Shown in pieces: positions 9,573-57,623 of a stretch of DNA of 57,623 bases (position 1 is the first letter of the stretch; the number at the start of each line of letters is the position of its first letter). A program made the position numbers and the translations under genes. Where the stretch lies: IMG/VR virus record IMGVR_UViG_3300048915_000124, positions 1-57,623 of that record; one strand, given 5' to 3'. The notes under the pieces are model-generated. The model was not told the DNA's origin. It saw only the letters and a program-made list of their open reading frames with translations, and made no database searches. The DNA comes from a virus.

Positions 9573-9854
9573 CTAGGTTGCGGTGATCCGGATGACGTGC
9601 ATCTGCCAGGGATCAAGGATGAACCGGGGTGCCAGGATGTCCGGCGGTACGTCAAACCATCGGGCGATGTCCTGCTCGGTGATACAGATACCGGGCAGTG
9701 AGACGCAGAGTGTGCAGCGGCATCCCTCGATTGCGGTCTTGTCGGGGTCGGGTCGCCATCGCATCGCGTCGGCGCTGGTGGTGCCGTCGATCGCGTTGTC
9801 GATGAGTTCGAGGATGGTGTCGTGGCGTTGTTGGTCCACGTGCCGAGTATGCAC
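9573..9854 (-). CDS. hypothetical protein on the opposite strand between the cos-like gap and terS
   Basis: ORF track. Codons almost all end in G/C (..ILELIDNAIDGTTSADAMRWRPDPDK..). Start could also be the GTG at 9842. Confidence 0.55.
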   Translation of the reverse strand: MHTRHVDQQRHDTILELIDNAIDGTTSADAMRWRPDPDKTAIEGCRCTLCVSLPGICITEQDIARWFDVPPDILAPRFILDPWQMHVIRITAT

Positions 9855-9859
9855 GGGCG

Positions 9860-15807: not shown

Positions 15808-17220
15808 ATGGCCGAGAATCCGTATCTGAAAGCGCTGAACGAGCAGTACACGACCCTGCAAAAGTCGATCACGGGGTTGCAGTCGCGGGCGAAGGAAGCG
15901 AACCGGGACCTGACGAACGAGGAACTCCGCAGCGTCATCGAGCAGGGCGAGAAAGCGAAGTCCCTGTTCACACAGATCGAGGACCTGTCCGAGATCGAGT
16001 TGCGGAACGCGAAGGTCGCGGCGATGAACGACCGGGTCCAGTCGGCGATCACCGCCGGGACGCAGCCGGGCGGCGACGGCGGCGACGGCGACGACCAGGG
16101 CGGCGACCAGTCAGGTGGGGACGGCCCGGTCGGTGACCCGGCGTTCCGCAAGCTCGGCGGCGGCCGGACCCTGGACCGCGACCCGGGCACGTACACCCGC
16201 GGCGGGCAGCATTCGTTCGTGTCCGACCAGTACCGGGCGTCGAAGATGGGCGACAAGGCGGCGGCGGAGCGGCTGAACCGGTACACCGTGACGATGGTGG
16301 CCCGGGCGCAGTCCGATCCGCAGTTGCGTGCCGTGCTCGGTGCGGGCGCGACGACGCTGGGCGCGGGTCTGGTGCCGCCGGTGTGGCTGGCGGAGGACTT
16401 CGCGCCGGTGATGCACAAGCGGCTGCGGCTGGCGAAGGCGCTGCGGCAGGTGCCATGGGCGGGGCCATTCGCGTGGACAATCCCCGTCGCCGGGACCGTC
16501 GCGAAGACATCCAGCACCGTTGAGGGTGTCAACACGACGATCACGAACCCGGGCTACGGGACGATCACCGTGACGCCGACGGACATCACCGGGTTCACCG
16601 AAGTGTCGCGGCAGATGCTCGAAGCGAGCAACCCGGCCGTCGACGCGGTGATCTGGGGCGACATGCTCGGCGACTTCTACGACAACTGCGAGATCCTCGT
16701 GATCGCCGCGCTGGTCGCGGTGGCGGGCGCGAACACGGCGACGGTGTCGGCGGGTGTGCTCACCACGACGGACATCATGGCGCAGCGGGCCGGCATCCTC
16801 GACGGGATCGTCGCGATCGCCGACGCGCCGGCCGGCGACCCGGACCTGTTCGTCGGCACGTCCGCGCGGTGGGCGTCGTACCTGAAACTGACGGACACGA
16901 CGGGTCGTCCGCTGATCCTGGCGCAGGCGTACCCGGCGATGAACCCGATCGGTCAGGGTGACTTGGGTGCCGCGTTCAACAACCCGTTCCAGGGCCGCTT
17001 GGAGTCCCTGAACGTGGTCACGTCGCCGTCGGTGGCGGCGTCGTCGGGCTTCATTCTCAACAGCCAGGAACACCTGTTCAGCGTCAGCCCGCCGATGCAG
17101 TTCCAGTTCGAGCAGCCGGTCGGGCCGGCGCTGGTGCGGATCGGTGTGTGGGGCTATGAGGCGGTCACGTTCGCGCGCCGCCCGAAGGCCATCACGAAGC
17201 TCGCCTACTCGGGTAGCTGA
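15808..17220 (+). CDS. major capsid protein, HK97 fold, with coiled-coil delta domain
   Basis: ATG after GAGAGGGG. N-terminal coiled coil and a Gly/Asp linker (GGDGGDGDDQGGDQSGGDG), then a ~330-aa body. Follows the protease gene. Confidence 0.8.
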   Translation: MAENPYLKALNEQYTTLQKSITGLQSRAKEANRDLTNEELRSVIEQGEKAKSLFTQIEDLSEIELRNAKVAAMNDRVQSAITAGTQPGGDGGDGDDQGGDQSGGDGPVGDPAFRKLGGGRTLDRDPGTYTRGGQHSFVSDQYRASKMGDKAAAERLNRYTVTMVARAQSDPQLRAVLGAGATTLGAGLVPPVWLAEDFAPVMHKRLRLAKALRQVPWAGPFAWTIPVAGTVAKTSSTVEGVNTTITNPGYGTITVTPTDITGFTEVSRQMLEASNPAVDAVIWGDMLGDFYDNCEILVIAALVAVAGANTATVSAGVLTTTDIMAQRAGILDGIVAIADAPAGDPDLFVGTSARWASYLKLTDTTGRPLILAQAYPAMNPIGQGDLGAAFNNPFQGRLESLNVVTSPSVAASSGFILNSQEHLFSVSPPMQFQFEQPVGPALVRIGVWGYEAVTFARRPKAITKLAYSGS

Positions 17221-17237
17221 GACGGAAGGGTCCACGG

Positions 17238-18671
17238 ATGGCTGACGTGACCGGTACCGGTGACGGCATGGTGCAGATCGCGTATCTGCACAACGAGCAC
17301 GTCAGCCATTCGTGGCACATCTCGAAGGAGGTACTCCGCGACTACGACTTGGACCGCGCGGTGGTCGACGGCGCTGATCTGGCTCACGCCGTCACCACCG
17401 GCTACCGGATCGCGCGGCGGCCGCTGAACCTGCGCTGCGGGTCGGGGATCGTCGCGCACGTCCGGAACTACGCTGCCCGCCTGTTCCTCGACAAGACGCC
17501 GCACGAGTGGCTGTTGTTCATCGACACGGACATGGGGTTCCAGGCCAACGCCGTACACCGGTTGTTGGAGGCGGCGGACCCGGTGCAGCGGCCGGTGGTG
17601 GGTGCCCTGTGTTTCGCGGCGATGGAAGCCGCGTACGACGGGATGGGCGGGTGGCGCCGCACGATCGTCCCCACCATGTACAAGTTGGGGAAGACCAACG
17701 ACGACGACGCGGACCCGTCGTTCTGCTACTTCGGGGATTACGACGACGACACCGTGACCCCGGTCGCGGGGACGGGCGGGGCGTTCCTGCTGATCCATCG
17801 CAGCGCGTTGGAGAAGTTGCGGGCGGAGCACGGGAACCACTGGTTCGACATGATGTACGACCGGGCCGACGACATCGTCGGTGAGGACATCGCATTCTGC
17901 GGCCGCCTGTTGAAGGCCGGCATCATCCCGCATGTGCACACCGGTGTGAAGACCACCCACCACAAAGAGGTGTGGCTGTCGGAGTTGGACTACGTGATGC
18001 AGAACGCGGTCACGTTGCAGCCGTACCCGGACCTCGTCGTCGCGATCGACATTGAGGAGTCGTTCGAGGCCCTCGCGGCGGGTGAGCACGCCCACGACGG
18101 GATGTGGAAACTGCCCGCGGACTTGGACCGGTACGCGCAGGTCATCGAAGCGACTCGCCCCGAGGTGCTCGTTGAGACGGGGACGCACACGGGCGGGTCA
18201 GCGCGCTGGTTCGCCGACCACGACCTCGACGTGATCACCGTGGATGTCGACGACCCGTTCGAGAAGTTCGGCGGCGAGGCGTACGTGAAGGCTGGGCATC
18301 CCCGGATCACGTTGGTGCGGGGGTCGTCGGTCGACCCGGATGTTGTGGCGCGGGTGTCGGCGCTGGTCGCCGGCCGGCGGTGCATGGTGTCCCTCGACTC
18401 GGATCACAGTGCGGCGCACGTCGCGCGGGAGATCGAGGCGTATGGGCCGCTCGTGTCGCCCGGCTGCTACCTCGTGGTCGAGGACACCCTGTTCGGGTAC
18501 GGGCATGATGTCCGGTCGAAGGACCATGGTCTGCATCCTCGGGCGGGGTCGCCGTTGGATGCGGTGGCCCGGTTCCTGGCGGGGAAGCCGGATTGGTCGC
18601 GGGATGTAGCGATCGAACGGTCGGCGACGATCTCACAAAATCCGGCTGGTTGGTGGGTAAGAGGTGGCTGA
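17238..18671 (+). CDS. fusion protein: GT-A (family-2-like) glycosyltransferase + CmcI/cephalosporin-hydroxylase-like SAM methyltransferase
   Basis: N-half: LLFIDTDMGF (DxD), GTGGAFLLIHRSALEKL, EDIAFCGRL. C-half: LVETGTHTGGSARWFA, VSLDSDHSAAHV, YLVVEDT (CmcI-like). Confidence 0.7.
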   Translation: MADVTGTGDGMVQIAYLHNEHVSHSWHISKEVLRDYDLDRAVVDGADLAHAVTTGYRIARRPLNLRCGSGIVAHVRNYAARLFLDKTPHEWLLFIDTDMGFQANAVHRLLEAADPVQRPVVGALCFAAMEAAYDGMGGWRRTIVPTMYKLGKTNDDDADPSFCYFGDYDDDTVTPVAGTGGAFLLIHRSALEKLRAEHGNHWFDMMYDRADDIVGEDIAFCGRLLKAGIIPHVHTGVKTTHHKEVWLSELDYVMQNAVTLQPYPDLVVAIDIEESFEALAAGEHAHDGMWKLPADLDRYAQVIEATRPEVLVETGTHTGGSARWFADHDLDVITVDVDDPFEKFGGEAYVKAGHPRITLVRGSSVDPDVVARVSALVAGRRCMVSLDSDHSAAHVAREIEAYGPLVSPGCYLVVEDTLFGYGHDVRSKDHGLHPRAGSPLDAVARFLAGKPDWSRDVAIERSATISQNPAGWWVRGG

Positions 18672-31442: not shown

Positions 31443-32024
31443 ATGACCACGACGTACGTCAATACGCAGACGGTTCGCCACGCCCGACCCAAACGGGGCC
31501 GGCACAGACGCACCCACCCCGGCCGCCGCGCCGCCCTCGTCGCCGTCGTGCCGGTCGCGGTGTGGGCGGCGACCCTCACCGCCGGCCCGGCTAGCACACC
31601 CCACCCGATGTGGGTAGCCCCACCGGCCATCGACCGAACAGCCACCCCCACCCTCGTCCCGTCGAACCCCAGCGTGGATACTCCCGCACCGTCGCCGGAC
31701 AGTCCCGGACGGCACCGGACAACCATGCCGCCGCCGATGCGCGCACCCCAACCGCCCCGCACCCGGCCAGCGCCACCCACCCGGACCGCACCGGCACCCG
31801 CACCGGTGACGACGACGCACCGGTACACCATCAACAACCCGGCCACCCCCACGGTCAGCCCGACCCGGGGCATGAAGAAGCCGGCACCGCCGAGACGGCA
31901 CCGGCACCGGAACCCCGCACCTACCCCCAGCCGCGACCGGACCCGACACGTACCCGACCCGGCCGTGGTGCGGCCCACCGCCCGTTGTGGACGACGTTCC
32001 CGAACGGGTGGAGCCGGCGGATAG
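31443..32024 (+). CDS. membrane-anchored Pro/Thr-rich protein (193 aa)
   Basis: Internal ATG of ORF 30918..32024. Basic N-terminus, TM helix AALVAVVPVAVWAATLTAG, then a P/T-rich region. G/C-rich third positions until the last ~15 codons, which overlap the convergent gene. Confidence 0.4.
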   Translation: MTTTYVNTQTVRHARPKRGRHRRTHPGRRAALVAVVPVAVWAATLTAGPASTPHPMWVAPPAIDRTATPTLVPSNPSVDTPAPSPDSPGRHRTTMPPPMRAPQPPRTRPAPPTRTAPAPAPVTTTHRYTINNPATPTVSPTRGMKKPAPPRRHRHRNPAPTPSRDRTRHVPDPAVVRPTARCGRRSRTGGAGG

Positions 32025-33725: not shown

Positions 33726-34028
33726 TCATCCTCTCGCCGCGGCCAGCGCGGCCCACAGCAACAGCAGGACAGCAACGCCGCCCAGCACGGTCACCAACCC
33801 CGACGCCGGCCGCCGGAACGCCAACTTCCCAGCCACCGCGACCGCGCCGACAGCGGCGACCGCAGCCAACCAGGCGTGCGGCACGGTAGCCCACAGGTAC
33901 GACAGGAACGCCCACCCAGCGACCCCGGCGAGCGCGGCCAACAGGACCGGGCCGAACAGGACGAGCAGCGGATGCCGCCACCCGAGCTTCGCCCACGCCG
34001 ACCGGCGCGCCGTCCGCCACCCGCTCAC
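33726..34028 (-). CDS. multi-pass small membrane protein (100 aa)
   Basis: Three hydrophobic helices (PLLVLFGPVLLAALAGVAGWAFL, AWLAAVAAVGAVAVAG, LVTVLGGVAVLLLLWAAL). Confidence 0.55.
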   Translation of the reverse strand: MSGWRTARRSAWAKLGWRHPLLVLFGPVLLAALAGVAGWAFLSYLWATVPHAWLAAVAAVGAVAVAGKLAFRRPASGLVTVLGGVAVLLLLWAALAAARG

Positions 34029-34288
34029 GCCGCCACATCCTCACCGGCCTGCAGGATCCCCCGCTGGTAGGCGAGCGCGACCGCGTGGGCGCTCGTCGAC
34101 GCGCCGAGCGCCCACCGGACCCGCCGCACATGCGTCCCCACAGCCTGCCGGCCGAGGTGCAACCGCGCCCCGATCTGTTTCTGCGTCAGGCCCTCGGCGA
34201 GCAGCGTCACGACCTGCATCTGCCGGCCCGTCAGGATGCCGCCCGGCCCGACCCGACGCCGGGGCAGCGGCGTCACATTCGCGTCCAT
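34025..34288 (-). CDS. LuxR/GerE-type HTH regulator (87 aa)
   Basis: LTGRQMQVVTLLAEGLTQKQIGARLHLGRQAVGTHVRRV. ATG at 34288 overlaps the upstream stop (TAATG). Confidence 0.7.
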   Translation of the reverse strand: MDANVTPLPRRRVGPGGILTGRQMQVVTLLAEGLTQKQIGARLHLGRQAVGTHVRRVRWALGASTSAHAVALAYQRGILQAGEDVAA

Positions 34289-34611
34289 TACCGGTTCACG
34301 TCCCAACGCGGCGCGGACGCCGCCTTCAACGGCACCACGATGTACCGGTTGTAGTCGATCCACAGCATCCCCGCCGCGACGCCGGTCTGCCGGGCCAGCT
34401 TCGCCATGTACCGCAGGTGCCGGGCGACGACCGTGCCCGGGGACCGGCCGAACCGGTTCCGGTCGATGGGGAGTTGGTCCCACTGCACCGCGCACGACGC
34501 GGCGAGGTTGTCCCACCCGATAGCGATCGCGGATGTCTCGTCCTGCACGGTGCGGACGAACCGGTCGAGTTTGCTTGAACAGTCGAGGTCCGGAACGGTC
34601 AAAGTCGGCAT
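34288..34611 (-). CDS. hypothetical protein (107 aa)
   Basis: ORF track. Coding-like composition. Confidence 0.55.
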   Translation of the reverse strand: MPTLTVPDLDCSSKLDRFVRTVQDETSAIAIGWDNLAASCAVQWDQLPIDRNRFGRSPGTVVARHLRYMAKLARQTGVAAGMLWIDYNRYIVVPLKAASAPRWDVNR

Positions 34612-34618
34612 GATTCCA

Positions 34619-34810
34619 TCAATCCTTTATCACTCGGTGTAACTCTTCTGGATGTTGCGGCCCCGTCTTCGCGAAGTTCGCGAAGATCGGTCTGTCCGGA
34701 TATGCCTGGCCGTTCGCGAACTTCACGGCCCACTTCGCGAACGCCTCCCTATAAGCGCCCCCCGACTTCGCGAAATCCGACTTCGCGAACTTCGCGAAAT
34801 CTACGATCAC
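34619..34810 (-). CDS. possible 63-aa FAK/FAN-repeat micro-protein coupled to the translocase gene (coding status uncertain)
   Basis: GTG overlaps the translocase stop (GTGA). VIVDFAKFAKSDFAKSGGAYREAFAKWAVKFANGQAYPDRPIFANFAKTG... Each FAK/FAN is one TTCGCGAA octamer. Confidence 0.35.
   Translation of the reverse strand: MIVDFAKFAKSDFAKSGGAYREAFAKWAVKFANGQAYPDRPIFANFAKTGPQHPEELHRVIKD
34668..34798. repeat. array of seven palindromic TTCGCGAA octamers (candidate cis-acting site)
   Basis: Copies start at 34668, 34677, 34713, 34734, 34767, 34782 and 34791. Spacings are 9, 36, 21, 33, 15 and 9 nt. Four copies share the ACTTCGCGAA context. Confidence 0.9.
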
Positions 34811-37041
34811 CCTGTGTGACCGGCGACGACGGCGCCGTCGAGGACCTTCGGCTCCCGCAGGATCACGAACTCGCCCCGGTCCAACCGCTCGATCGTCAGA
34901 CCCGGCGGCGACACAACCTCGCCCTTCGCGACCCGGTCCATCCGCTCCGAGAACCACGACACAGACCGCTTGAACGGGAACCGGGCGATCACGTCCCTTG
35001 GCGCGAACGTCTCCATCCCCTCATCTGCCATCCGCCGCAGCACCAGGTCGAACGCGTCGTAGGCCGCCTGCCGGTTCGGGGCCTCGGGCCGTTCGTCGCC
35101 GCTGTCCCAAATCAGGTCAGGCTCGTCCAACTCTTCCGGGGGGCGCAGCTCGTCGGGGTCGGCGTTGGCGTAGCGCTCCACGTCGCCGGGTTCGGGGTCG
35201 TCCATCGCCGGGACCGGGGGGACCTCGTCCGGGTCGGCGGATGCCCAGTCCTTTAGGTCGTAGGGGTTGACGTTCGGGTCGGTGTGCATGTCAATCTCCT
35301 CGTCTCGCGGTTGCGTCGGGGTGACCCAACGCGGCGGGTTGGTTGGTAGCGGTACGGTCGGGGACTCCGCCGCCGGCTGCGCTGGCGGTGCGTATGCCGC
35401 CGCCGCACGGCCCGGCGGTTGGAACATCGCCCACGCCTTCCCCAGGTCAGCGATGTCGGCGGGGTGCATCCGGGCCCGGTAACGCCGGCCGTCCACGATC
35501 GCCGGGACGAGCACGTCGAACCCGCCGCGCAGCGACCGGATCTCCATCGCGTACCGGGACTCGTCGACACCCGGCGCCCCGTCGAGGAAGTGGTAGCCGG
35601 GTTTCGTGTTCCGCCAGTCGCAGACCTTGTCACCACCGGCCATCACGGTCCGTTTCGTCATCGCGAACGTGTGGGAGTAGTCGTCGCCGGTCCCGAAGAC
35701 CTGCCACTGGTTCATCGCCGTCCGGGCGGTGGTGTCCATCGAGTCGCCATCCGCGCGGGGCATCAACGCATGTACGAAGATCCCCGCGGACAGGCACTTC
35801 GTGACGAGGTCCCGGAACTGGGTGGTGCCGCACACCATGTCCGCCTCGTCGATGACGACGAGCAACGCCGGCAGGCCGAGGTCTTCGTACGTGCGGACCG
35901 TCCAGTCGTTGTGCCGGTGCGCGCCCATCCGCGTAGCCCGTGCGAACGCCAACTTCGCGAGCGCACCGAGCAGCGCTTTCGCTTTCGCATAGCCGTCTGC
36001 GTAGAGGACCACGTCGTCCATCACCTGCGCGGCCAACGATTGGCCCGGTTTCGCGCAGTCGATGTACACGACGAGTACGTCGCGGCGGGTGAACGCAATG
36101 TCGGTCCACAGGATCGCGCCGCACCCCGACTTCCCCGACCGGGTTGTACCGACGGTGCCGAGGTGCCCGGCGGGGATGTCGTCGCCGTTCGCATCGGCCC
36201 ACTTCGCGAACCGCACGACCTCGGGTTGCGCATCCGCGTACCGGCCGCACACCCCGCCGTCTGCGAACGAACCACCCGGATGCGAAGGCCCATCCCAGCG
36301 GGGCCACGGTTCGAGGGGGTCGCGGTGCATGAACACCATCCGGATCTTCTTCGTGATCGGGTTGCGTTCCAGCCGTGACCGGCCGGGCAGCGCCGCCGGC
36401 ACGGCGTCTTCGATCGCTTCCATCCGGTGCGCAACGTCGCTCATCGTCTTCCCCGGGCCGGGGCTGATCTCAGCGGTGATGTGGTGCGCGTCGATCGTCG
36501 GCTGGCTGACCGTGGCCCGATCGAGGCCGATCAACTTCCCGAACGTGTCAGCCCCGGCGCCGTCCTTGGCGCGGCTGTCGGCGCGCAACGCGTCGATGCG
36601 GGGCAGGTGCCACGACCCGGCACCGATCAGCGACAACGTGAAGTGGATGATCAGCCACGGCAGGGACCAGCCGAACACGACGGTAAACCCGACCAGGAAT
36701 CCGGCGAGCCACATGGTCCCGATGACGTGGGCGGCGACGAACGTGTCCCGTTTCGTGACCCGCGTGTTGTGCAGCCACGCAATCAGCGACAGGGCGCAGA
36801 CGCTGAGGCACACGCACGCGGTGATGATGGCCTTGACGTGCGGGTCACCGATCCCGATTGGCCATGGCAATGGCCACCCGTTGACGGTGCGGACCTGGTC
36901 GCCGAGCAGGTACAGGGCGGTCGAGCCCCACGGGATCGCCGCGAACCAGACCCGCCAGTACCCGACGAACGGGGTGGTGCCGCGCCCGCGTGGGCGGCGT
37001 TCGTCGTGGTCGTGGTGCTCGGCGCGTCGCGTCGTCGTCAC
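34807..37041 (-). CDS. membrane-anchored FtsK/SpoIIIE-family DNA translocase (TraB-like architecture)
   Basis: GTG at 37041 inside ORF 34807..37290. About four N-terminal TM helices, Walker A GTVGTTRSGKSG, Walker B LLVVIDEAD, an acidic linker, and a C-terminal ~80-aa helical, possibly winged-helix domain. Confidence 0.8.
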   Translation of the reverse strand: MTTTRRAEHHDHDERRPRGRGTTPFVGYWRVWFAAIPWGSTALYLLGDQVRTVNGWPLPWPIGIGDPHVKAIITACVCLSVCALSLIAWLHNTRVTKRDTFVAAHVIGTMWLAGFLVGFTVVFGWSLPWLIIHFTLSLIGAGSWHLPRIDALRADSRAKDGAGADTFGKLIGLDRATVSQPTIDAHHITAEISPGPGKTMSDVAHRMEAIEDAVPAALPGRSRLERNPITKKIRMVFMHRDPLEPWPRWDGPSHPGGSFADGGVCGRYADAQPEVVRFAKWADANGDDIPAGHLGTVGTTRSGKSGCGAILWTDIAFTRRDVLVVYIDCAKPGQSLAAQVMDDVVLYADGYAKAKALLGALAKLAFARATRMGAHRHNDWTVRTYEDLGLPALLVVIDEADMVCGTTQFRDLVTKCLSAGIFVHALMPRADGDSMDTTARTAMNQWQVFGTGDDYSHTFAMTKRTVMAGGDKVCDWRNTKPGYHFLDGAPGVDESRYAMEIRSLRGGFDVLVPAIVDGRRYRARMHPADIADLGKAWAMFQPPGRAAAAYAPPAQPAAESPTVPLPTNPPRWVTPTQPRDEEIDMHTDPNVNPYDLKDWASADPDEVPPVPAMDDPEPGDVERYANADPDELRPPEELDEPDLIWDSGDERPEAPNRQAAYDAFDLVLRRMADEGMETFAPRDVIARFPFKRSVSWFSERMDRVAKGEVVSPPGLTIERLDRGEFVILREPKVLDGAVVAGHTG

Positions 37042-37042
37042 G

Positions 37043-37741
37043 TCAGGCGCCCCGTTCCTGGCGTAGTTCCTTCGTCCACAGCTCGACGGCACGTTTGCTG
37101 ACACCGAGCGCGAGGGCGATCTCCGCGCAACTGCCCTCCCGTGCGGCGTACCGGCGGCGGGCCTCGTCCGCGGTCGGGTTGGTCGATGCCGGACGGGTCT
37201 TCGGACGCTGCCGGCGGCGGGTAGGCCGTGCAGCCCGTGCGGGCACGTCAGCGGCAGGCGGTGCCGCCTCGGCGGCCGGTCGCTGTACACGCGGCGCGGG
37301 AACCGACACGACCGGGACCGGCCGGTGTCGCCACGTCACCACCGCGAGGTGCACACCGAGCGACAACAGCACCGGCAGCACACCCGCACCGATCCAGCCC
37401 TGCCACGGCAAGCCGCGCGCCTGCGCATCGGCGAGGTTCGCGGCGATGCTCGACGCGTTCGCCACCGCGAACACCGACCACGCGTACACACGCACCCGGA
37501 ACGGTGCACCGGCGAGGACGAACGCCGCCGCGACCGCGACGATCTGCAACACGTCCAGCGCAACCGGCACCGCGAACGCGAACCGGTCACCGAGGCGCAT
37601 CACGTCACGCCCATAGCCCCAGTTCCCATGCGCAGTCAGAGCGAAGATCCCGGCGATGACGACCGCCGTCGCGGTGATGAGCACACCGGCGGCGGTGCGT
37701 TGCGCAGTGTCAGGCTTCGCACCCGCGTTCGCATCGGTCAT
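37043..37741 (-). CDS. DUF2637-like four-TM membrane protein with C-terminal HTH
   Basis: ATG at 37741 inside ORF 37043..37849. Four hydrophobic helices, a Pro/Arg linker, then AREGSCAEIALALGVSKRAVELWTKEL. First gene of the leftward operon. Confidence 0.6.
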   Translation of the reverse strand: MTDANAGAKPDTAQRTAAGVLITATAVVIAGIFALTAHGNWGYGRDVMRLGDRFAFAVPVALDVLQIVAVAAAFVLAGAPFRVRVYAWSVFAVANASSIAANLADAQARGLPWQGWIGAGVLPVLLSLGVHLAVVTWRHRPVPVVSVPAPRVQRPAAEAAPPAADVPARAARPTRRRQRPKTRPASTNPTADEARRRYAAREGSCAEIALALGVSKRAVELWTKELRQERGA

Positions 37742-37843
37742 GGCCGCAAGTATGGGGTCGCTTGCGCGCTGTGCGCAACCCGCACGGTGCGCACGGCACG
37801 CGCAACTATACCCAGGGTGACGTGCGCAACAGACTTGCGTACC
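37742..37843. promoter_or_regulatory. divergent control region with TGCGCAAC-type repeats
   Basis: GTGCGCAAC at 37771 and 37822, CGCGCAAC at 37799, GTGCGCAC at 37787. Two inverted GTTGCGC copies lie just inside the rightward gene (about 37913..37936). Confidence 0.45.
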
Positions 37844-38107
37844 ATGCACGCCATGCGCGACGAAGACGCCCCCGACAGCGAAGACTGGCTGTCGCCGCGC
37901 GAAATCGCCGACGCGTTGCGCGTGCCGTTGCGCACCGTCCAGGCGTCGTTCGCAGACGACGAACTGCGCATCCGATGGTGGGAGCCGGAGGTCGACGGGC
38001 GGCGGGTCAAGGCGTGGCGTACGAAGCCGTTGACGCGGCAGCGGCAGTACCAGGCCCGCCGGTGGGCTGTCGACCGGCTCGTCGGCGGCGAGCCGGTCGG
38101 TGCGTAA
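37844..38107 (+). CDS. small HTH DNA-binding protein divergent from the translocase operon
   Basis: WLSPREIADALRVPLRTVQASF is HTH-like. ATG at 37844 (or 37853) inside ORF 37325..38107. Confidence 0.55.
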   Translation: MHAMRDEDAPDSEDWLSPREIADALRVPLRTVQASFADDELRIRWWEPEVDGRRVKAWRTKPLTRQRQYQARRWAVDRLVGGEPVGA

Positions 38108-38914: not shown

Positions 38915-40060
38915 CTACCGCCCCCGGCGTAGCCCGGCGAGGCGCCGTTGCCGGCCCCGCACCAACTGCAGCACCCTGCCCGACCCGGTTGCCTCCGCCA
39001 CGAACCGGGCCCGGTCCAACACCGCCCCCGCCTCGTCGAGGTCGTCGGCGACCATCAACGCCGACCCGAGATGGCCCATGTACTCGGCGGCCCAGTCCGC
39101 GCCGCGCATCTCCGGCGGCATCCCCTCGAGCCCGGCGGTGAGGTCCGCGACCGCCCCCGCCGCCGCGACCGGCCGGTGCCGCGCCACGTACAACCACACC
39201 AAGCCGCGCTCCAACCGCCACAGCCACGGCGCCCGGTAGTACTGCCACGCCGGCACCGCACCCGTGTACCGGTTGGTCGCGTCGGCGAGCTGGTCGCCGA
39301 AGTCGAGCAGCGGCAGGGCGGCGTCGACCTCACCCAACGCGGCCAGACCACGCGCGGCGGCATAGGCGTCATAGGCGCGCTGCCCCGGATAGACGGCCGG
39401 GTCACGCAGCGCGGCGCGGGCCAGCCCAACCGCCGGCGCCCACTGGCAGGTCAGCCACGCGACGTGCGCCTGGTACGACACGGTGGTGGCGAGCAGATCC
39501 CGGTCGCCGTGCTCGGTTGCCCACTCCGCCGCTCGCGCGAACCACACCCGGGCGTCCGGCCACTTCCCGAGCGACGTGTGCAGCCAGCCGCAGAACTGGG
39601 CCCACTGCGCCGCGACGTACAGCAGGTCGGGGCGGGTCGGGCCGGCGACCTCCACGACCATGGTGGTGATCGCGGCCATCTGCGCGGCGACGGGGCCGAG
39701 CATGGTGGCGGAGCCGGCCACGTCGTCGAGGTGGCGTTGCCCGGCCAACACGCGGGTGAGGGCGTCGATCGTGTCGGGGCCGACGCGGCGGGGGTTCGCG
39801 ACGGCGTCGACGAGCAGGTCCCGGTCGTCGGGGCTTGCGGCGGCGATCAGTAGGTCGGTGAGTTGCCCGTCGGCGTGGAGTGCCCGGTCGAGGGCGCGGA
39901 CCACCTGCGGCGAGGGGCTGCGTTCGCCGTTGACCAACTGGCTGAGGTAGCTGTGGGAGATGTGCGCGGCGGCGGCGATCCGGTTCTGCGACGCCCGCGT
40001 TTCGAGGATCAGTGCGACGAGGACGGCGCGGAAGCGGGGGTCGATGGCAGGGCGGCCCAT
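38915..40060 (-). CDS. XRE-type HTH regulator with large helical-repeat (TPR-like) C-terminal domain
   Basis: N-terminus ILETRASQNRIAAAAHISHSYLSQLVNGERSPS. The remaining ~300 aa are Ala/Leu/Trp-rich helical repeats. 381 aa. Confidence 0.7.
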   Translation of the reverse strand: MGRPAIDPRFRAVLVALILETRASQNRIAAAAHISHSYLSQLVNGERSPSPQVVRALDRALHADGQLTDLLIAAASPDDRDLLVDAVANPRRVGPDTIDALTRVLAGQRHLDDVAGSATMLGPVAAQMAAITTMVVEVAGPTRPDLLYVAAQWAQFCGWLHTSLGKWPDARVWFARAAEWATEHGDRDLLATTVSYQAHVAWLTCQWAPAVGLARAALRDPAVYPGQRAYDAYAAARGLAALGEVDAALPLLDFGDQLADATNRYTGAVPAWQYYRAPWLWRLERGLVWLYVARHRPVAAAGAVADLTAGLEGMPPEMRGADWAAEYMGHLGSALMVADDLDEAGAVLDRARFVAEATGSGRVLQLVRGRQRRLAGLRRGR

Positions 40061-45105: not shown

Positions 45106-45464
45106 CCGACCCCAACACCCCCGACCTCGACACCACCGACCGGGCCGACCAGTTCACCCGCCGCGTCACCCTCTACGCCGACACCTGCGAACTCGTCGAA
45201 ATCGCCGTCCGGCGGCAGTTGCTCGACGGGCAGATGGCCCACGGCGACCGGGCCGCCTACCGGACCATCCTCAACCGGCTCCACACCCATCAGGTCGACT
45301 TCCTCGTCGCGTTCCTCGCGAACGTGTGCAGCGAACTGGCCACCGCCGCCGCCGAATACTCCGAGACCAGCGTCGACGCGATCGTGGCGGACATCCACGA
45401 GGCCGCGGCGGCCGCGATCGACGCGGCTGAGCGGGAGTACCTCGAATCGGGGTACCTGCCGTGA
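45102..45464 (+). CDS. hypothetical helical protein (120 aa)
   Basis: Internal ATG of ORF 44637..45464 overlapping the upstream stop. Confidence 0.55.
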   Translation: MTDPNTPDLDTTDRADQFTRRVTLYADTCELVEIAVRRQLLDGQMAHGDRAAYRTILNRLHTHQVDFLVAFLANVCSELATAAAEYSETSVDAIVADIHEAAAAAIDAAEREYLESGYLP

Positions 45465-46132
45465 CCCGCCGGCTGCTCGACCTGTTCTGCGGTGCCGGCG
45501 GCGCCGGGATGGGCTACCACCAGGCCGGGTTCGAGGTCGTCGGGGTGGACATCGAACCGCAGCCGCGGTACCCGTTCGAGTTCCACAAGGCAGACGCCAT
45601 GACGTTCCCGCTCGACGGGTTCGACGCGGTACACGCGAGCCCACCATGCCAGGACCACACCGAACTCGCCTTCGGGAAACTAGGCCGCCGCGAGGCGCAT
45701 GGCACCGGCTGGATGCTCCCCGCCACCACCGACCGGCTCGGCGTCTCAGGACTGCCGTACGTCATCGAGAACGTGCCGCGGGCGCACCTGCCGGGCGCGT
45801 TCATACTCTGCGGCCGGTCGTTCGGTATCGAGCGGTTGAAGCGGCACCGCAAGTTCCTCGTGAACTTCCCGATCCTCGTCCCGCCGTGCGCCTGTTCCCG
45901 CAAGGTCAAGCCGCTGGGCGTGTACGGCGACATGAGCAAGAACGACCGTTCGATGGGCAGACACAATCCGGACGGCTACCAGCGGATGCGCGCCGGAGTG
46001 GACACCGCGCGCAGGTTGCTGGACTGCCCGTGGATGGAGGCTGCCGAACTCTCGCAGGCGATCCCCCCGGTGTACACGCGGTTCATCGGTGAGCAGTTGC
46101 TCGCTCATCTCGGCTCGGCGGTGACGCCGTGA
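45461..46132 (+). CDS. DNA (cytosine-5) methyltransferase, short form
   Basis: Motif I LDLFCGAGGAGMG, motif IV ASPPCQD, motif VI YVIENVP, C-terminal QAIPPVYTRFIG. Only 223 aa and no adjacent restriction gene. Confidence 0.8.
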   Translation: MTRRLLDLFCGAGGAGMGYHQAGFEVVGVDIEPQPRYPFEFHKADAMTFPLDGFDAVHASPPCQDHTELAFGKLGRREAHGTGWMLPATTDRLGVSGLPYVIENVPRAHLPGAFILCGRSFGIERLKRHRKFLVNFPILVPPCACSRKVKPLGVYGDMSKNDRSMGRHNPDGYQRMRAGVDTARRLLDCPWMEAAELSQAIPPVYTRFIGEQLLAHLGSAVTP

Positions 46133-46755: not shown

Positions 46756-47210
46756 CCCCGCCAACCCGGCCCCCCGACCTGCGCGGCGCCGCCTGCCGCA
46801 ACGTCGAGGACAAGGACATCTTCTTCCCGTTCCCGGGGAACTACGCCGCCGTCGACGCCGCCAAGGCGATCTGCCGGGGCTGCCCCGTCCTCGCCGCGTG
46901 CCGCCCCTGGGCCCTCGCTGTCGCCCGCGACATGTACGCCAACCGGCAGGACATGCAGGGCGTGTGGGCGGGGATGTCCGAACGGGACCGGCAGCCGTAC
47001 CTCACGGTCCGGGCCGAGTGCGGCACCGACGCCGGGTTCTGGCTGCACGTCCGGTTGGGGGAGCGGACGTGTCCGGCGTGCCGGGCGGTGCACCGCTACG
47101 TGCGGGAACACGGCCCGGCGGCGACAGCGGCCCGGAATGAGCGGCGCCGTGGGCATCGGGCGGCGTGCAACGCGGCGGCTGTGGTTGACGTGTCGGCGGT
47201 GGCGTCGTGA
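46752..47210 (+). CDS. WhiB-like transcription factor with C-terminal extension
   Basis: Four Cys (AACRNV...AICRGCPVLAAC) and GVWAGMSE (G[VI]WGG-type turn). Confidence 0.8.
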   Translation: MTPPTRPPDLRGAACRNVEDKDIFFPFPGNYAAVDAAKAICRGCPVLAACRPWALAVARDMYANRQDMQGVWAGMSERDRQPYLTVRAECGTDAGFWLHVRLGERTCPACRAVHRYVREHGPAATAARNERRRGHRAACNAAAVVDVSAVAS

Positions 47211-48526
47211 CGGGCCGGGCGCTGGTGCTGCGGGGCGACGCCCGCCGCCTGCCGCTGCCCGACGCGTCGGTCGACGCGATCGTCTGCGACCCGCCATACG
47301 GCCTTGGCTTCATGGGCAAGGAATGGGACAGCGGCAAAAGTTTCGTGGAACGCAAGGCCGCCCGGTCCAACACGTTCGATCACGTCGGCGGCAACCACAA
47401 CCCGGTCGACAACGCCGACGCCGCCCGCACCCGCAGAGTTGAAGCCGCGAAGTTCGGCCGGTGGTGCGAGACGTGGGCGGCTGAGGCGTTGCGGGTGTTG
47501 AAGCCGGGCGGGTGGCTGGTCGCGTTCGGCGGTACCCGCACCTGGCACCGGCTCGCCTGCGCGGTCGAAGACGCTGGGTTCGAGATCCGCGACAACATCG
47601 GCCACGGCTGCTGTATGGCCTGGGTTCAAGGTCAAGGTTTCCCGAAAGGGGAGAACGCGCTCAAGCCGGCATGGGAGCCGATCATTTTGGCGCGGCGTCC
47701 GCTGGCCGGCACGGTCGCCGGGAATGTGTTGGCGTACGGCACGGGCGCGCTCAACATCGACGGCTGCCGGATTGGTGCCGGGCTTGACTATCACGAATTG
47801 CGGGTTACGCAAGGCGGCAAAGATGGCGGCGGCTTTGATGTTGGATCAAGCAACGGAACGCGACACACCACGTTTAGACCGGCCGCTGGCCGGTGGCCCA
47901 CCAACGTCGTCCTGTCCCACGTCCCGCTGCTCGACGACGACGGCTTCCCGGTTGGGGATGCGTGCGAGTCGGGGTGTGTGCCGGGCTGCCCGGTCGCCGA
48001 ACTCGACGCGCAGAGCGGCGACCGGCCTAGCACGGGCACACCGACCCGGCCCGCACGACCGGGGATCGGAACGACGGGAGGCTACGGTGGGGCGCTCGGC
48101 CTAAACACGCAGGGACCGCTTTACTCCGACTCCGGTGGCGCGTCCCGGTTCTTCCCCACCTTCCGCTACCAGGCCAAGGCCGACGACTGGGAACGCCCCA
48201 CCATCGGCGGCGTCGCCCACCCCACCGTCAAACCCCTCGACCTCATCCGGTGGCTGTGCCGGCTCATCACCCCACCCGGCGGGCTCATCCTCGACCAGTT
48301 CGCCGGCAGCGGCACCACCGTCGAGGCCGCGCTGCTTGAAGGGTTCCACGTCATCGGCGTCGAGCAGGACGCCGGCTACCTCCCGCACATCACGTACCGG
48401 GTTGACCGTGCCCGCCGCCGGATGCAACCCGGTGTCGCGCGGCTTGGCCGGACCCGCCCGACCCCGCCCACGACTGGGCAGGACGACCTGCTCAGTCTCC
48501 TCACCGAAGGGACCCCGCCGTCATGA
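47207..48526 (+). CDS. N6-adenine/N4-cytosine DNA methyltransferase (beta class)
   Basis: SVDAIVCDPPYGLGF (motif IV) is N-terminal to ILDQFAGSGTTVEAAL (motif I). No adjacent restriction gene. Confidence 0.8.
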   Translation: MTGRALVLRGDARRLPLPDASVDAIVCDPPYGLGFMGKEWDSGKSFVERKAARSNTFDHVGGNHNPVDNADAARTRRVEAAKFGRWCETWAAEALRVLKPGGWLVAFGGTRTWHRLACAVEDAGFEIRDNIGHGCCMAWVQGQGFPKGENALKPAWEPIILARRPLAGTVAGNVLAYGTGALNIDGCRIGAGLDYHELRVTQGGKDGGGFDVGSSNGTRHTTFRPAAGRWPTNVVLSHVPLLDDDGFPVGDACESGCVPGCPVAELDAQSGDRPSTGTPTRPARPGIGTTGGYGGALGLNTQGPLYSDSGGASRFFPTFRYQAKADDWERPTIGGVAHPTVKPLDLIRWLCRLITPPGGLILDQFAGSGTTVEAALLEGFHVIGVEQDAGYLPHITYRVDRARRRMQPGVARLGRTRPTPPTTGQDDLLSLLTEGTPPS

Positions 48527-54445: not shown

Positions 54446-55599
54446 CCATCCCCGCCGAAGCCGCCACCCTGCACTGCGCGCTCTGCGGCAACGGACTCGT
54501 CCCCTGGCGACCCGGCCAGACCACCCACCCCATGTGCGACCCCGCCGAAGCCGACCGGATCCGCGAAGCCGCCGCCAACCCACCCGCCCCACCACTCAAC
54601 GGCGCCGCCGGCCACACCGACCCCGACCAACACACCAGCTACGTCGACCGGCTCCGCGCCAACCTCATCGACACCGCCGGCCTCGACAGCATCGGCGACC
54701 CCGAACCCCTCATCACCGGCGTCGTCCAACTCGACTCGATCGCCTGGATCGGCGGCCGGCCCGGCTCCGCGAAAACCCTCGTCGCGCTCGACATGGCCGG
54801 CGCGGTCGGCACCGGACAGCCATGGCAAACCATCCCTGTCCGAAAAGGATCAGTGCTGTACCTGATCGCCGAAGGTGCCCGCGGCATCCGGAAACGGGTC
54901 CGGGCGTGGGAAGCCGCCAACGACCGGCCCATGACCGGGGTCACGTTCCTCCCCGTCGCCGTCCAGGCCGCGAGCGAATTGCAGTGGAACGCGCTGTGCG
55001 AACTGGCCGCCGACCTGAAACCGGCGCTGATCGTCATCGACACCCAGGCCCGGGTGACGGTCGGCATGGAGGAGAACTCGAACAAGGACATGGGGGTCTT
55101 CGTCGACCGGCTTGAACGGCTCCGGCGGGCGTGCGCGGCGTGTGTCCTCGTCCTCCACCACACTCCACGCGGATCGGACAATCTACGCGGCGCGACGGCG
55201 ATGGAGGGTGCCGCCACCACGATCATTATGACCGTGATGGAGGGCGACACCGTCACCCTCATAAATGCCCCAGAAGAGGGCGGAAAGCAAAAAGACTTCG
55301 ACCCGTTCGACCCCATCAACCTGCGTCTGATACCTACCGATAGGTCCGTTATTCTGGCTCTCACGGACCGTCCACAAAGGACGGACACAAATTCGAAGGC
55401 CGTCCGCGACTTGCTCTCACGCTGGTGGGCCCTTCATGAGAGCGACGAGGTTTCCGTATCCGTCCTGATCAAATCCGGTGCCTGCTCCGAAGCCACGTTC
55501 CACCGATCGAAGAAAGCCCTGATAGCCGACGGTTTCGTGGCCAAGGAAGGTAAGGGCAACCAGGTCCGCTACCGCTTACTGAGAGATCCATCGTCATGA
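54442..55599 (+). CDS. AAA_25 / RepA-like RecA-fold ATPase with C-terminal winged-helix (replication initiator or helicase-like)
   Basis: Walker A GGRPGSAKT, Walker B ALIVIDTQ, VLVLHHTPRG. C-terminal FHRSKKALIADGFVAKEGKGNQVRYRL. N-terminal CALCG zinc knuckle. Confidence 0.7.
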   Translation: MTIPAEAATLHCALCGNGLVPWRPGQTTHPMCDPAEADRIREAAANPPAPPLNGAAGHTDPDQHTSYVDRLRANLIDTAGLDSIGDPEPLITGVVQLDSIAWIGGRPGSAKTLVALDMAGAVGTGQPWQTIPVRKGSVLYLIAEGARGIRKRVRAWEAANDRPMTGVTFLPVAVQAASELQWNALCELAADLKPALIVIDTQARVTVGMEENSNKDMGVFVDRLERLRRACAACVLVLHHTPRGSDNLRGATAMEGAATTIIMTVMEGDTVTLINAPEEGGKQKDFDPFDPINLRLIPTDRSVILALTDRPQRTDTNSKAVRDLLSRWWALHESDEVSVSVLIKSGACSEATFHRSKKALIADGFVAKEGKGNQVRYRLLRDPSS

Positions 55600-55602
55600 G
55601 TG

Positions 55603-55730
55603 GCTCTCAAGCGCTCTCAAGCGCTCTCAGGAAAGTAAGCCATAGACGCCCGCACTCACTCTCATGCTCTCACCACCTCTTAGAGGTGAGAGCGTGAGAG
55701 CGAGGCGATGGCGGCCAGTACCTCTTAGAG
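55603..55730. repeat. iteron-like repeats and palindrome: candidate replication origin
   Basis: GCTCTCA at 55603, 55613, 55623 and 55666. Inverted TGAGAGC at 55687 and 55695. Perfect palindrome CACCTCTTAGAGGTG at 55674..55688, with ACCTCTTAGAG again at 55720. Lower-GC region directly after the ATPase gene. Confidence 0.5.
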
Positions 55731-55768
55731 ATCAAAAGCGCATCAAGAGGAGAGGGTGACCACCGCCG

Positions 55769-56008
55769 ATGACCAAGGCATTGAAGGCCAGCGAATATGG
55801 CCTCAAACCGCACTACAAGGTCCGTATTGTTATTTCCGGTGCGATTTTGCACTTGGCGTCGTGGGATCAGCCGCAGGTTGCCGAGGGCCCGGGTGGCGCT
55901 GTCGCCGGGGTTGAGGCGTCGTGGATTGATGATCCGGGTTACGGCGACACTGCCGGGTTCGTCGATTGGGCGGCCGTGGACGCGGTCACGTGGCGCTGGT
56001 CTGAATGA
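55769..56008 (+). CDS. hypothetical protein (79 aa)
   Basis: ORF track. AAGAGGAGAGGG upstream. Confidence 0.5.
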   Translation: MTKALKASEYGLKPHYKVRIVISGAILHLASWDQPQVAEGPGGAVAGVEASWIDDPGYGDTAGFVDWAAVDAVTWRWSE

Positions 56009-57579: not shown

Positions 57580-57623
57580 TGGCGGCGGGCCCGGCCCCGT
57601 TCGGGAACCGGGCCGGGCCCGCC
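57580..57623 (+). terminator. GC hairpin; the stem is 18 bp perfect once the window ends are joined (right arm continues at 32..35)
   Basis: TGGCGGCGGGCCCGGCCC-cgttcgggaacc-GGGCCGGGCCCGCC(GCCA). Located 16 nt after the stop of 56989..57564. Confidence 0.6.

Follow-up and report, generated by a model that had tools for sequence, protein, structure and literature searches.

The repeat array directly downstream of the gene for a TraB-like DNA translocase in this phage genome is probably the clt-like cis site of that translocase. The array lies in a window of 57,623 nucleotides (the whole stretch of DNA that was analyzed) and has counterparts in 10 homologous phage loci (L001 to L006, L008 to L010, and L018), all of which are uncultured metagenomic contigs. 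The array is present, its architecture is conserved, and homologues of TraB and TraA adjoin it. Binding of the translocase to the array and a role of the array in transfer would follow by homology with the plasmids pWTY27, pSVH1, and pJV1. TraB and clt form the minimal one-protein double-stranded DNA (dsDNA) conjugation system of mycelial actinomycetes. To our knowledge, defined clt sites number only a handful so far, and there are very few pairs for which the recognition code of the TraB winged helix has been worked out.

Seven exact copies of the octamer TTCGCGAA are found within 131 bp (34668..34798, minus strand) just 3' of the translocase stop. They start at 34668, 34677, 34713, 34734, 34767, 34782, and 34791, with inter-copy spacings of 9, 36, 21, 33, 15, and 9, exactly as the earlier note had described them, and the extended context that it had seen in four copies is ACTTCGCGAA on the plus strand. 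The array begins 1 bp past the TGA of the translocase gene (from 34806 downward) and its first exact copy 8 bp past it, within a gap of 195 bp (34612-34806) that has a GC content of 56%, versus 69% for the genome. The whole 57.6-kb window contains nine copies of TTCGCGAA, versus 1.02 ± 0.94 expected from 100 dinucleotide-preserving shuffles, none of which (0/100) reached nine. Of the remaining two copies, one lies in the tape-measure gene (25086) and one in the translocase gene (36203), and each is read in frame as Phe-Ala-Lys, as had been noted. Since these two copies outside the gap are at chance level (0.5 to 1.6 expected under Markov models of order 0 to 4), the excess is due to the cluster alone. 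The probability that seven of nine uniformly placed sites fall inside 131 bp is approximately 3e-14, and the array came out on top when exact 7-mer multiplicity was scanned in 2297 sliding segments of 200 bp (7 versus ≤5 elsewhere). The octamer repeats are thus essentially confined to this locus, where the gap holds the seven exact copies and one or two degenerate ones, arranged as follows:

34668..34798, minus strand: seven-copy TTCGCGAA array; in translocase sense, the unit is TTCGCGAAG(T), of 9 bp
34767-34798, 34713-34741, and 34668-34684, minus strand: three repeat clusters, grouping the exact copies
34799..34806, minus strand: degenerate first unit TCGTAGAT, which abuts the TGA stop and aligns with TCGTGAAG in L004 and TCGTGAAC in L001
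34721..34728, minus strand: eighth, degenerate copy CCGTGAAG, in phase with the others and at the position of the CGTGAAG copy in L004
34742..34758, minus strand: central element GCGCTTATAGGGAGGCG, of the form CCT-W(0-2)-AGG, between repeat clusters
34688..34699, minus strand: CCGGACAGACCG element, conserved, between the second and third clusters
34781..34798, no strand: left arm of a perfect 18-nt inverted repeat (partner arm, 34668-34685)
34668..34685, no strand: right arm of the same inverted repeat (partner arm, 34781-34798)
34627..34642, minus strand: TTACAC-CGA-GTGATAA element (TCAC-N5-GTGA type), conserved, just upstream of the Shine-Dalgarno sequence (SD) and ATG of the TraA-like gene

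The 18-nt inverted repeat is made of the outer tandem pairs and gives the array dyad symmetry. The TTACAC-CGA-GTGATAA element is distinct from the octamer array and may be an operator or a leader. An Rfam search of the array region retrieved no family. The predicted RNA fold of the gap has a z score of −2.8 because the repeats are inverted and palindromic; a structured RNA was rejected, as the fold cannot be conserved in homologues with purely direct repeats. A tie to the two DNA methyltransferases of the phage, considered because the octamer contains TCGCGA, was likewise rejected, as the homologous arrays use unrelated and mostly nonpalindromic words. An exact search of IMG/VR for the tandem octamer geometry retrieved nothing. 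In GTDB, the matches were simple tandem repeats, (GTTCGCGAA)x5, one in a Burkholderiaceae metagenome-assembled genome (MAG) and one in a Gemmatimonadota MAG; both are unrelated and were judged irrelevant.

The genes around the array are all encoded on the same strand, as follows:

37043..37849, minus strand: membrane protein with a weak C-terminal helix-turn-helix (HTH), DUF2637-like, upstream of the translocase
34807..37041, minus strand: TraB-like dsDNA translocase (database call, 744 amino acids; longest open reading frame [ORF], 34807-37290)
34852..35094, minus strand: C-terminal domain of the translocase, predicted to be a winged helix (residues ~650 to 730; H-b-H-H-b-b)
34288..34611, minus strand: TraA-like gene (107 amino acids), next gene downstream of the array; its product is homologous to TraA, a transfer protein of Streptomyces plasmids
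34025..34291, minus strand: small HTH protein of the LuxR/GerE type, encoded after the TraA-like gene

The translocase is matched by the NCBIfam model NF041214 (plasmid_TraB) over residues 71 to 709 (profile positions 34 to 620 of 639) with an E value of 7e-64. The score of 216 bits is far below the 800-bit equivalog cutoff, which indicates a diverged TraB homologue, not an equivalog-level member of NF041214. It shares 25 to 32% identity with the annotated TraB proteins of Streptomyces, Nonomuraea, and Amycolatopsis plasmids. Its FtsK-type P-loop motor has a Walker A motif (GTTRSGKS) and a Walker B motif (VVIDEAD), both invariant in the alignment, and was missed by the Pfam FtsK_SpoIIIE model (E value, 0.066). 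A tblastn search of 50,697 GenBank phage records with the translocase gave no match. Sequence searches of the PDB with the protein or its profile retrieved nothing, so that a fold search was needed; with an AlphaFold2 (AF2) model as the query, the best PDB matches in Foldseek were the FtsK motors 6t8b, 2iut, and 2ius (E values of 4e-14 to 1e-10). The model places four long hydrophobic helices at the N terminus (residues 23 to 143), which likely constitute the membrane anchor, and also contains a disordered linker. The C-terminal 80 residues have the topology H-b-H-H-b-b, with a domain pLDDT of 77 (core, 85 to 91). Every top Foldseek match of this domain is a winged helix, with E values of only 0.1 to 1 and FtsK-gamma not among them, and its assignment as a putative winged helix rests on topology. 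The putative recognition helix (alpha-3) is SVSWFSERMDRV.

The 107-amino-acid product of the gene that follows the array aligns with TraA of pWTY27 and pCQ3 with an hhalign probability of 93% and an E value of 3e-7. The counterparts in L001, L005, L006, L008, and L010 of the protein encoded at 37043..37849 match DUF2637. The earlier proposal that the array is positioned like a clt site is therefore borne out in its placement: the adjoining gene encodes a TraB homologue with a predicted winged helix, 10 phage loci carry arrays of their own, and the architecture is that of the pWTY27 clt.

Comparison of the homologous loci shows that the positions of the repeats are kept while the word changes. 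The sample comprises about 11 array-bearing loci and 4 distant ones without a gap; related-locus searches of GTDB genomes and JGI metagenomes gave only false pattern matches, and a megablast search with 30 to 40 kb of the window retrieved nothing from GenBank phages or PLSDB. For nine aligned loci, the translocase is 32 to 58% identical to P0001, whereas that of L018 is more distant (29% identity to family member P0013). A low-GC gap of 160 to 230 bp lies right past the translocase stop in 10 of 10 homologous phage loci, and each gap carries its own short repeat, nearly confined to it. The gap accounts for 12 of 14 copies of CGTGAAM in L001, 7 of 8 copies of TGARYTCA in 18 kb of L002, and 5 of 5 copies of the respective motif in each of L006 (where the array word is of the type CCGTAAAA) and L009. 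These motifs were defined post hoc from the gaps, and the exact 7-mer statistic is not exceptional for L002, L003, L005, and L008. In the window, L004, and L001, the repeats stand at conserved distances from the stop (about 10, 19, and 34; 66, 78, and 87; and 125 and 134), and the word at these positions runs from CGCGAAG in the window through CGYGAAG in L004 to CGTGAAM in L001. The CCT-W-AGG central palindrome is present in all phage homologues and recurs in the clt of pWTY27 (CCTAGG) and of pCQ3 (CCTTAGG), and elements similar to CCGGACAGACCG are found in L001, L004, L008, and L018. In the phages, the array always co-occurs with a downstream TraA-like gene; the more distant relatives L011, L012, L013, and L020 have neither the gap, nor the array, nor this gene.

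The putative recognition helix varies in step with the repeat motif, which is only suggestive. Helices with WFSER accompany CGYGAR, those with STMS[ER]R accompany palindromes with an AATT core, and those with GWFT[QK][QR]L accompany CCG[TG]AAAA; the motif classes thus track the alpha-3 classes across the 10 loci, in a sample that is small and confounded by phylogeny. The earlier note had proposed comparing the octamer and the peptide encoded by it in homologous elements and had counted the loss of both against its reading. Formally this is the outcome, as neither is kept. It does not refute a cis site, because a co-evolving protein/site pair predicts a changed word at conserved positions, and the array itself is kept, with a changed motif.

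The peptide had been suggested because all seven exact copies (7/7) stand in one phase of an ORF and are read as FAK or FAN:

34619..34810, minus strand: 63-codon ORF, judged not a gene

A micro-gene for an FAK/FAN repeat peptide, in which the palindrome would result incidentally from the codons or the DNA would be both coding and cis acting, could draw on this phasing, which was recovered together with the divisibility of all spacings by 3 and extends to the degenerate eighth copy. It could also draw on a frame that is open for 63 codons from a GTG overlapping the translocase stop. This GTG, taken earlier for a start codon, is nothing but the conserved terminal Gly codon of the translocase followed by TGA, and it occurs likewise in L001 and L002. 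The comparative data contradict the micro-gene: in the homologous gaps, either each of the three forward frames is interrupted by stops (L001, L002, L004, and L006) or no comparable ORF exists, none of these gaps is spanned by an FAK peptide, and in L004, which has the same motif as the window, the copies occupy all three phases. The composition of the ORF is also atypical, with a GC3 of 0.67 outside the octamers (0.86 to 0.95 in the genes of this genome) and many rare codons (GTA, TTA, ATA, AGA, and AGG); it has no Pfam or PHROG match, and gene callers placed no gene in any gap. The within-cluster spacings of 9, 12, and 15 bp, which are multiples of 3 by themselves, also occur in L004 (9-bp steps in L001), whereas the inter-cluster spacings of 33 and 36 in the window are 32 and 38 in L004. 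Only 33 and 36 therefore need chance divisibility by 3, a coincidence of about 1 in 9. The codon phasing thus appears to be mostly a by-product of the 9/12/15-bp unit spacing together with this coincidence, and the striking pattern is a product of unit spacing, not evidence for a gene. The array is noncoding and the micro-gene is extremely improbable; of the earlier interpretation, the clt-like site stands, with its TraB homologue, TraA and DUF2637 neighbors, and homologous arrays, and the constraint at the peptide level falls for want of a conserved frame.

Two further explanations keep the array as a cis-acting element and assign it another partner. Short tandem and inverted repeats are typical of operators of the ribbon-helix-helix (RHH) type, and the array could be an operator or iteron array for the promoter of the downstream TraA-like/GerE-like operon, or have a dual use with TraB loading. 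In every phage locus, the gene that follows begins directly downstream of the array, and relatives that have no gap have no array either. Several HTH proteins are encoded nearby, and both the TCAC-N5-GTGA element by the SD and the central palindrome have a regulatory appearance. The candidate binders would be the TraA-like protein, the GerE-type HTH protein, the HTH tail of the DUF2637 protein, and an NsdA-family regulator, by analogy with the ParR/parC and omega-heptad arrays. However, neither a sigma-70-type promoter nor an intrinsic terminator was found in the gap, and the TraA-like proteins have no DNA-binding domain recognizable with Pfam or NCBIfam. A GerE-type regulator is unlikely as the binder because L001, which has the largest array (12 copies), has no GerE-type gene among the four genes called downstream (~1.9 kb of a short contig). 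Motif covariation was compared between the GerE-type, TraA-like, and DUF2637 HTH proteins and the TraB winged helix over only 8 to 10 sequences, among which the DUF2637 HTH is nearly the same in the window and L005 (VSKRAVELW and VSKRSVELW) despite their different motifs. The link of the array to the translocase rather than to the next promoter rests on pWTY27 and pCQ3, because the equivalent array follows traB there although traA lies upstream; in pWTY27, the array is footprinted by the translocase itself (PMC3583192). An operator function is thus unlikely.

Short-repeat arrays in low-GC intergenic DNA are also typical of centromeres, origin iterons, and packaging sites. The genome is complete and circularly assembled (31-bp terminal overlap), and sites of these kinds must therefore exist somewhere in it, so the array might be a partition centromere, replication-origin iterons, or a pac/cos site recognized by the small terminase. 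A distance of 23 kb separates the array from the terminase gene, and cumulative GC skew reaches its extremes at about 30 kb and 55 kb rather than at 34.7 kb. Domain searches of the neighboring genes found no ParA, ParB, or Rep homologue adjoining the array, and a limited test for adjacent ParA/ParM and centromere-binding genes was negative. The array is tied to the 3' end of traB at every locus, including that of pWTY27, a plasmid without a terminase, in which the replication iterons are a separate characterized locus by repA (PMC3583192). A cis site of these other kinds is very unlikely.

As a clt-like site, the array would act as follows. The seven to eight copies of the 9-bp unit TTCGCGAAG(T), in three clusters about a short central palindrome, would be the loading site, at which the C-terminal winged-helix domains of a membrane-anchored hexameric TraB-like translocase would bind the repeats. 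Binding would bring the motor onto the double-stranded genome of the phage, and this genome would then be pumped, with no virion involved, into a neighboring hyphal compartment or cell. The motif may have co-evolved with the translocase, as related phages hold the repeat positions and differ in the words, and differing words would keep the pump of each element specific for its own DNA. Neither an integrase nor ParAB was found in the window, where pCQ3 ParA and ParB as tblastn queries gave no matches; a plasmid-like state as the start of transfer hence stays hypothetical.

A wider and more tentative possibility is that uncultured actinomycete tailed phages move their dsDNA genomes without virions by a TraB-TraA-clt system and that word turnover at fixed positions is an exclusivity code. 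If so, this code would protect the pump of each element from being hijacked by co-resident related phages or plasmids, and the arrays would be a natural series for reading the code by which the winged HTH (wHTH) recognizes an 8-mer. The about 10 aligned phage arrays, with fixed positions and a changing word, are a comparative resource for specificity swapping, because each adjoins its own translocase. [quoted passage not shown]

Among known systems, the clt of pWTY27 is the closest in organization. Transfer depends in cis on this 175-bp site (Wang et al. 2012, PMC3583192), and footprints of the purified translocase lie to either side of the center of the site (PMC3583192). In both elements, the site begins within the 3' end of the translocase gene or right at it (the pWTY27 clt, at 9803-9977, overlaps the end of traB at 9818) and fills the gap that follows, which is ~160 bp long in pWTY27. 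The 7-bp TGACACC clusters of pWTY27 flank a CCTAGG palindrome at the center; they include one inverted copy and are accompanied by a CCGGACA element. An element like GGACAGAC is shared, and the pWTY27 counterpart of CCGGACAGACCG is CCGGACACG. The neighborhood is the same (DUF2637, traA, and traB), and the translocases are homologous, with 25% identity and matches of both to NF041214. The motifs are unrelated, TGACACC in the plasmid and TTCGCGAAG in the phage, where the core of the motif is itself palindromic. The gene order of pWTY27 (DUF2637, hypothetical, traA, traB, and clt) places traA upstream of traB, whereas the phage traA lies downstream of the array, and a 14-kb plasmid is compared with a 57.6-kb tailed-phage genome. 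Binding and the cis requirement were demonstrated experimentally in pWTY27, whereas both are predictions for the phage site.

[quoted passage not shown] The clt of pSVH1, with its TraB recognition sequence (TRS) GACCCGGA, is recognized by the TraB wHTH (Vogelmann 2011, as cited in PMC4447253 and PMC3583192), and that of pJV1 has nine 9-bp direct repeats (Franco 2003, as cited in PMC4447253 and PMC3583192). [quoted passage not shown] The repeats given there are unrelated in sequence to the phage word and are direct, whereas the outer pairs of the phage array form the perfect inverted repeat. Conjugal transfer of the Streptomyces phage-plasmid pZL12 through its tra gene is reported, as cited in PMC3583192. 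Like the window, pZL12 and pCQ3 are tailed-phage genomes with traA-traB; neither has nucleotide similarity to this phage. The TraB of pCQ3 is the best plasmid-database match to the translocase (31.6% identity), and a CTGACA array with a CCTTAGG center follows its traB. Unlike this phage, pCQ3 carries an integrase and ParAB.

KOPS and SRS are polar words that are dispersed and skewed over the whole chromosome. The FtsK/KOPS and SpoIIIE/SRS systems resemble the phage module, as predicted here, in that a hexameric dsDNA pump of the FtsK type, which carries a winged helix at its C terminus, reads an 8-bp word; the phage word differs in being clustered at one locus, with two copies outside versus about one expected. 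Short tandem and inverted repeats about a central region, with a small gene downstream, are also found in ParR/parC of R1 and in the omega heptads of pSM19035, whereas no partition ATPase or RHH protein is found near the phage array. The homology of the whole locus argues for a conjugation module rather than for an array of the ParR/parC or omega type.

Seven exact copies of the palindromic octamer TTCGCGAA lie within 131 bp of the window (34668-34798), at successive spacings of 9, 36, 21, 33, 15, and 9 bp, as the earlier note had described. They occupy a 195-bp gap directly 3' of the stop codon of the TraB-like translocase gene, bounded on its other side by the ATG (34611) of the following gene on the minus strand. 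The claimed excess of the octamer was borne out: the window contains nine copies, versus 1.02 ± 0.94 expected from dinucleotide-preserving shuffles, and the two outside the gap (0.5 to 1.6 expected under Markov models of order 0 to 4) are both in frame within genes. Assuming uniform placement, the probability of finding seven of nine sites within 131 bp is about 3e-14, and the gap ranks first of 2297 sliding windows by exact 7-mer multiplicity. On the translocase strand the unit reads TTCGCGAAG(T) in five of the seven copies, and the tandem pairs at the two ends of the array are perfect inverted repeats of each other over 18 nt.

34807-37290, minus strand: translocase P0001, longest ORF (34807-37041, 744 aa, in the public database)
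34742-34758: central palindrome of the CCT-W(0-2)-AGG type
34721-34728: eighth, degenerate copy of the octamer, CCGTGAAG
34627-34642: TTACAC-CGA-GTGATAA, an element of the TCAC-N5-GTGA type

The window, with a GC content of 68 to 69%, is a tailed-phage genome, as shown by its gene content; the array lies within a leftward gene block (32.3 to 40.3 kb). The plus strand encodes the large terminase, portal, protease, major capsid, tape measure, minor tail, and endolysin proteins. Early genes, among them those for methyltransferases, RuvC, and an exonuclease, are also present; two DNA methyltransferase genes occupy 45461-46132 and 47207-48526 (plus strand). A 31-bp exact direct repeat at the ends (1-31 and 57593-57623) indicates that the assembly, of about 57.6 kb, is complete and circular or circularly permuted. 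No nucleotide match to the window was found in GenBank phages or PLSDB, and the searches run detected no integrase or ParA/ParB in the genome. A 530-aa ORF (3254-4846, plus strand) matches Pfam DMFA2_C (E 1e-78), the N,N-dimethylformamidase beta subunit-like C-terminal domain, which is unusual in a phage, and has no PHROG match. A 381-aa HTH_31 and TPR protein (38915-40060, minus strand) matches the NsdA-family regulators of NCBIfam (E 1e-26). As NsdA represses differentiation in Streptomyces, this gene is a hint that the host is a sporulating actinomycete and that its development may be manipulated. The lowest-GC kilobase (55000-56000, 60%) lies near the cumulative GC-skew minimum, contains a perfect 10-bp tandem repeat (GCTCTCAAGC, ×2.7, 55603-55629), and is a candidate origin or packaging region. 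Other repeats are a 60-bp tandem repeat (×1.9, 8289-8401) inside a 619-aa ORF without family match (6915-8774) and an imperfect CGCACC ×11 tract at 31742-31804.

Pfam does not recognize the translocase (FtsK_SpoIIIE, E 0.066). NCBIfam plasmid_TraB gives a nearly full-length match (E 7e-64, 216 bits) that falls short of the equivalog cutoff of 800 bits, and tblastn gives 25 to 32% identity to annotated TraB from plasmids of Streptomyces, Nonomuraea, and Amycolatopsis. The AlphaFold model, built on an alignment of 11 sequences, begins with four hydrophobic helices, followed by a confidently modeled P-loop domain that groups with FtsK motor structures (Foldseek, E 4e-14), a disordered linker of about 100 residues, and a small C-terminal domain. 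Modeled alone, the latter has a core pLDDT of 85 to 91 and the topology H-b-H-H-b-b, as in a winged helix; its top structural neighbors are all winged-helix proteins, each nonsignificant singly (E 0.1 to 1). Among 1.84 billion proteins, 618 representatives of the family were counted at E <= 1e-3, with no member in 50,697 GenBank phages by tblastn.

The 107-aa gene after the array encodes a homologue of the TraA proteins of plasmids pWTY27 and pCQ3 (hhalign probability 93%, E 3e-7), and homologues of the membrane protein encoded before the translocase match DUF2637. The same gene set occurs in pWTY27, in the order DUF2637, hypothetical gene, traA, traB, and clt, the cis site by which TraB is loaded. 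On the basis of the TraB, TraA, and DUF2637 homologies and this common gene set, the block is a predicted Streptomyces-type conjugation module.

Two protein searches retrieved eleven relatives, whose contigs were fetched, and a scan of IMG/VR added locus L018. A gap of 160 to 230 bp directly follows the translocase stop in ten loci (L001 to L006, L008 to L010, and L018); translocase identity is 32 to 58% among the nine aligned to P0001, with L018 more distant. No gene is called in any of the ten gaps, each has a GC content 8 to 21 points below that of its locus, and each is filled with the locus's own short repeat:

L004: CGYGAAG
L001: CGTGAAM, 12 copies
L005: [CG]CGAAG / CGAATTCG
L002: TGARYTCA
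L003: GAAACGTGAAA
L006: CCGTAAAA
L009: CCGGAAAA
L008: GCGCAATTGCGC-like
L010: GAAACG (forward) in the left part, CGTTTC in the right part
L018: GGAAAGTC

The words seldom occur elsewhere: 12/14 (L001), 7/8 (L002), 5/5 (L006), 5/5 (L009), and 11/14 copies fall inside the gaps. In the gap alignment, the window, L004, and L001 correspond copy for copy (about 10, 19, and 34; 66, 78, and 87; and 125 and 134 from the stop), but the word differs. The words have thus changed in concert at fixed sites, the hallmark of a protein-binding array whose geometry is constrained and which would coevolve with its binder. The CCT-W(0-2)-AGG palindrome lies between clusters in every phage gap and may serve for additional binding, for bending, or as a cruciform center; a GGACAGAC-like element is common to most gaps. 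The TCAC-N5-GTGA element, distinct from the octamers, is kept in most homologous gaps, is perfect in L002 (ATCAC-AGAGA-GTGAT), adjoins the SD 25 to 35 nt upstream of the TraA-like start codon, and may be the real operator, or a leader. A bacterial globin (Bac_globin) gene lies a few genes downstream of the module in L002 (15051-15431) and L003 (13262-13645). The more distant loci L011, L012/L019, L013/L021, and L020 (23 to 31% identity) have neither gap nor array; near its translocase, L011 carries ArdC-N (antirestriction) and AcrVA2-like genes (4356-4835 and 16509-17669). Simple (GTTCGCGAA)x5 tandem repeats in a Burkholderiaceae MAG (L016, 2933-2967) and a Gemmatimonadota MAG (L017, 1077-1111) appear unrelated to the phage array.

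The earlier note had also placed the octamers in a 63-codon ORF (34619-34810, minus strand) that reads them as FAK/FAN and may be a micro-gene. The ORF and its codon phasing are real in the window, but its status as a gene is rejected. Homologous gaps (L001, L002, L004, and L006) have stops in all forward frames and no FAK peptide, and in L004 the same word falls in all three phases. The 9-, 12-, and 15-bp spacings within clusters are also seen in L004, and L001 has 9-bp steps; such spacings account for the multiples of three within clusters, leaving to chance (about 1 in 9) only the two intercluster distances, which are 33 and 36 in the window versus 32 and 38 in L004. Outside the octamers, the GC3 of the ORF is 0.67 versus 0.86 to 0.95 in the genome's genes, and rare codons are many. 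The GTG that overlaps the translocase stop arises from a conserved glycine codon, the last of that gene, together with the TGA. Together, these features make a coding array extremely improbable.

The array is instead probably a noncoding, clt-like array with predicted TraB binding. The winged helix-turn-helix (wHTH) of the translocase is the best candidate binder, given its homology to pWTY27 and pSVH1, the array position, and the match between helix and motif classes. In pWTY27 and pCQ3, where traA precedes traB, the array is still found at the 3' end of traB, and the putative recognition helices pair by class with the repeats: WFSER with CGYGAR, STMS[ER]R with AATT-core palindromes, and GWFT[QK][QR]L with CCG[TG]AAAA. 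Two observations speak against a nearby GerE-type or DUF2637 HTH protein as the binder: L001 has the largest array, and its short contig showed no GerE-type gene, and the DUF2637 HTH is near-identical in the window and L005, whose words differ. These arguments for the translocase are suggestive rather than decisive. The array may instead, or in addition, be regulatory, as in phages it is always upstream of the TraA-like gene.

No promoter or terminator was found in the gap. A structured RNA was rejected, with no Rfam match and a fold z of −2.8 accounted for by the palindromes. A methylation target, pac/cos site, origin, or centromere is poorly supported; although TCGCGA occurs within the octamer, the words of the homologous arrays are unrelated, and therefore no methyltransferase link is drawn.

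The binding proposed for the translocase has precedents in plasmids. In the literature, clt regions are stated to contain element-specific 7- to 9-bp repeats recognized by the TraB winged helix (PMC4447253, PMC3583192, and PMC4170104), such as 8 bp in pSVH1 and nine 9-bp repeats in pJV1 (as cited in PMC4447253 and PMC3583192). In pWTY27, a 175-bp clt, formed by 16 bp inside the translocase gene and the following 159 bp, is needed in cis for transfer, and two of its regions are protected by the purified translocase, there named TraA and annotated traB at NCBI (PMC3583192). This clt presents the same repeat/palindrome layout as the phage gaps, with five forward copies and one inverted copy of TGACAC[CG] around a central CCTAGG (L014, about 3355-3362), followed by CCGGACACG. 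About 0.8 kb after clt, the 14-kb pWTY27 also carries a gene with the annotation "phage major capsid protein" (4143-5001), a hint of phage/plasmid exchange around the module. The best plasmid match to the window's translocase is carried by pCQ3, itself a phage-plasmid that encodes capsid and tail proteins, an integrase, and ParAB, and in which CTGACA repeats surround CCTTAGG (L015, about 4795-4801) after traB. TraB/clt systems and Streptomyces phage-plasmids with tra genes (pZL12 and pCQ3) are already known; what is new is an array from a distinct uncultured phage lineage, within an unusually clean comparative series of fixed positions and changing words.
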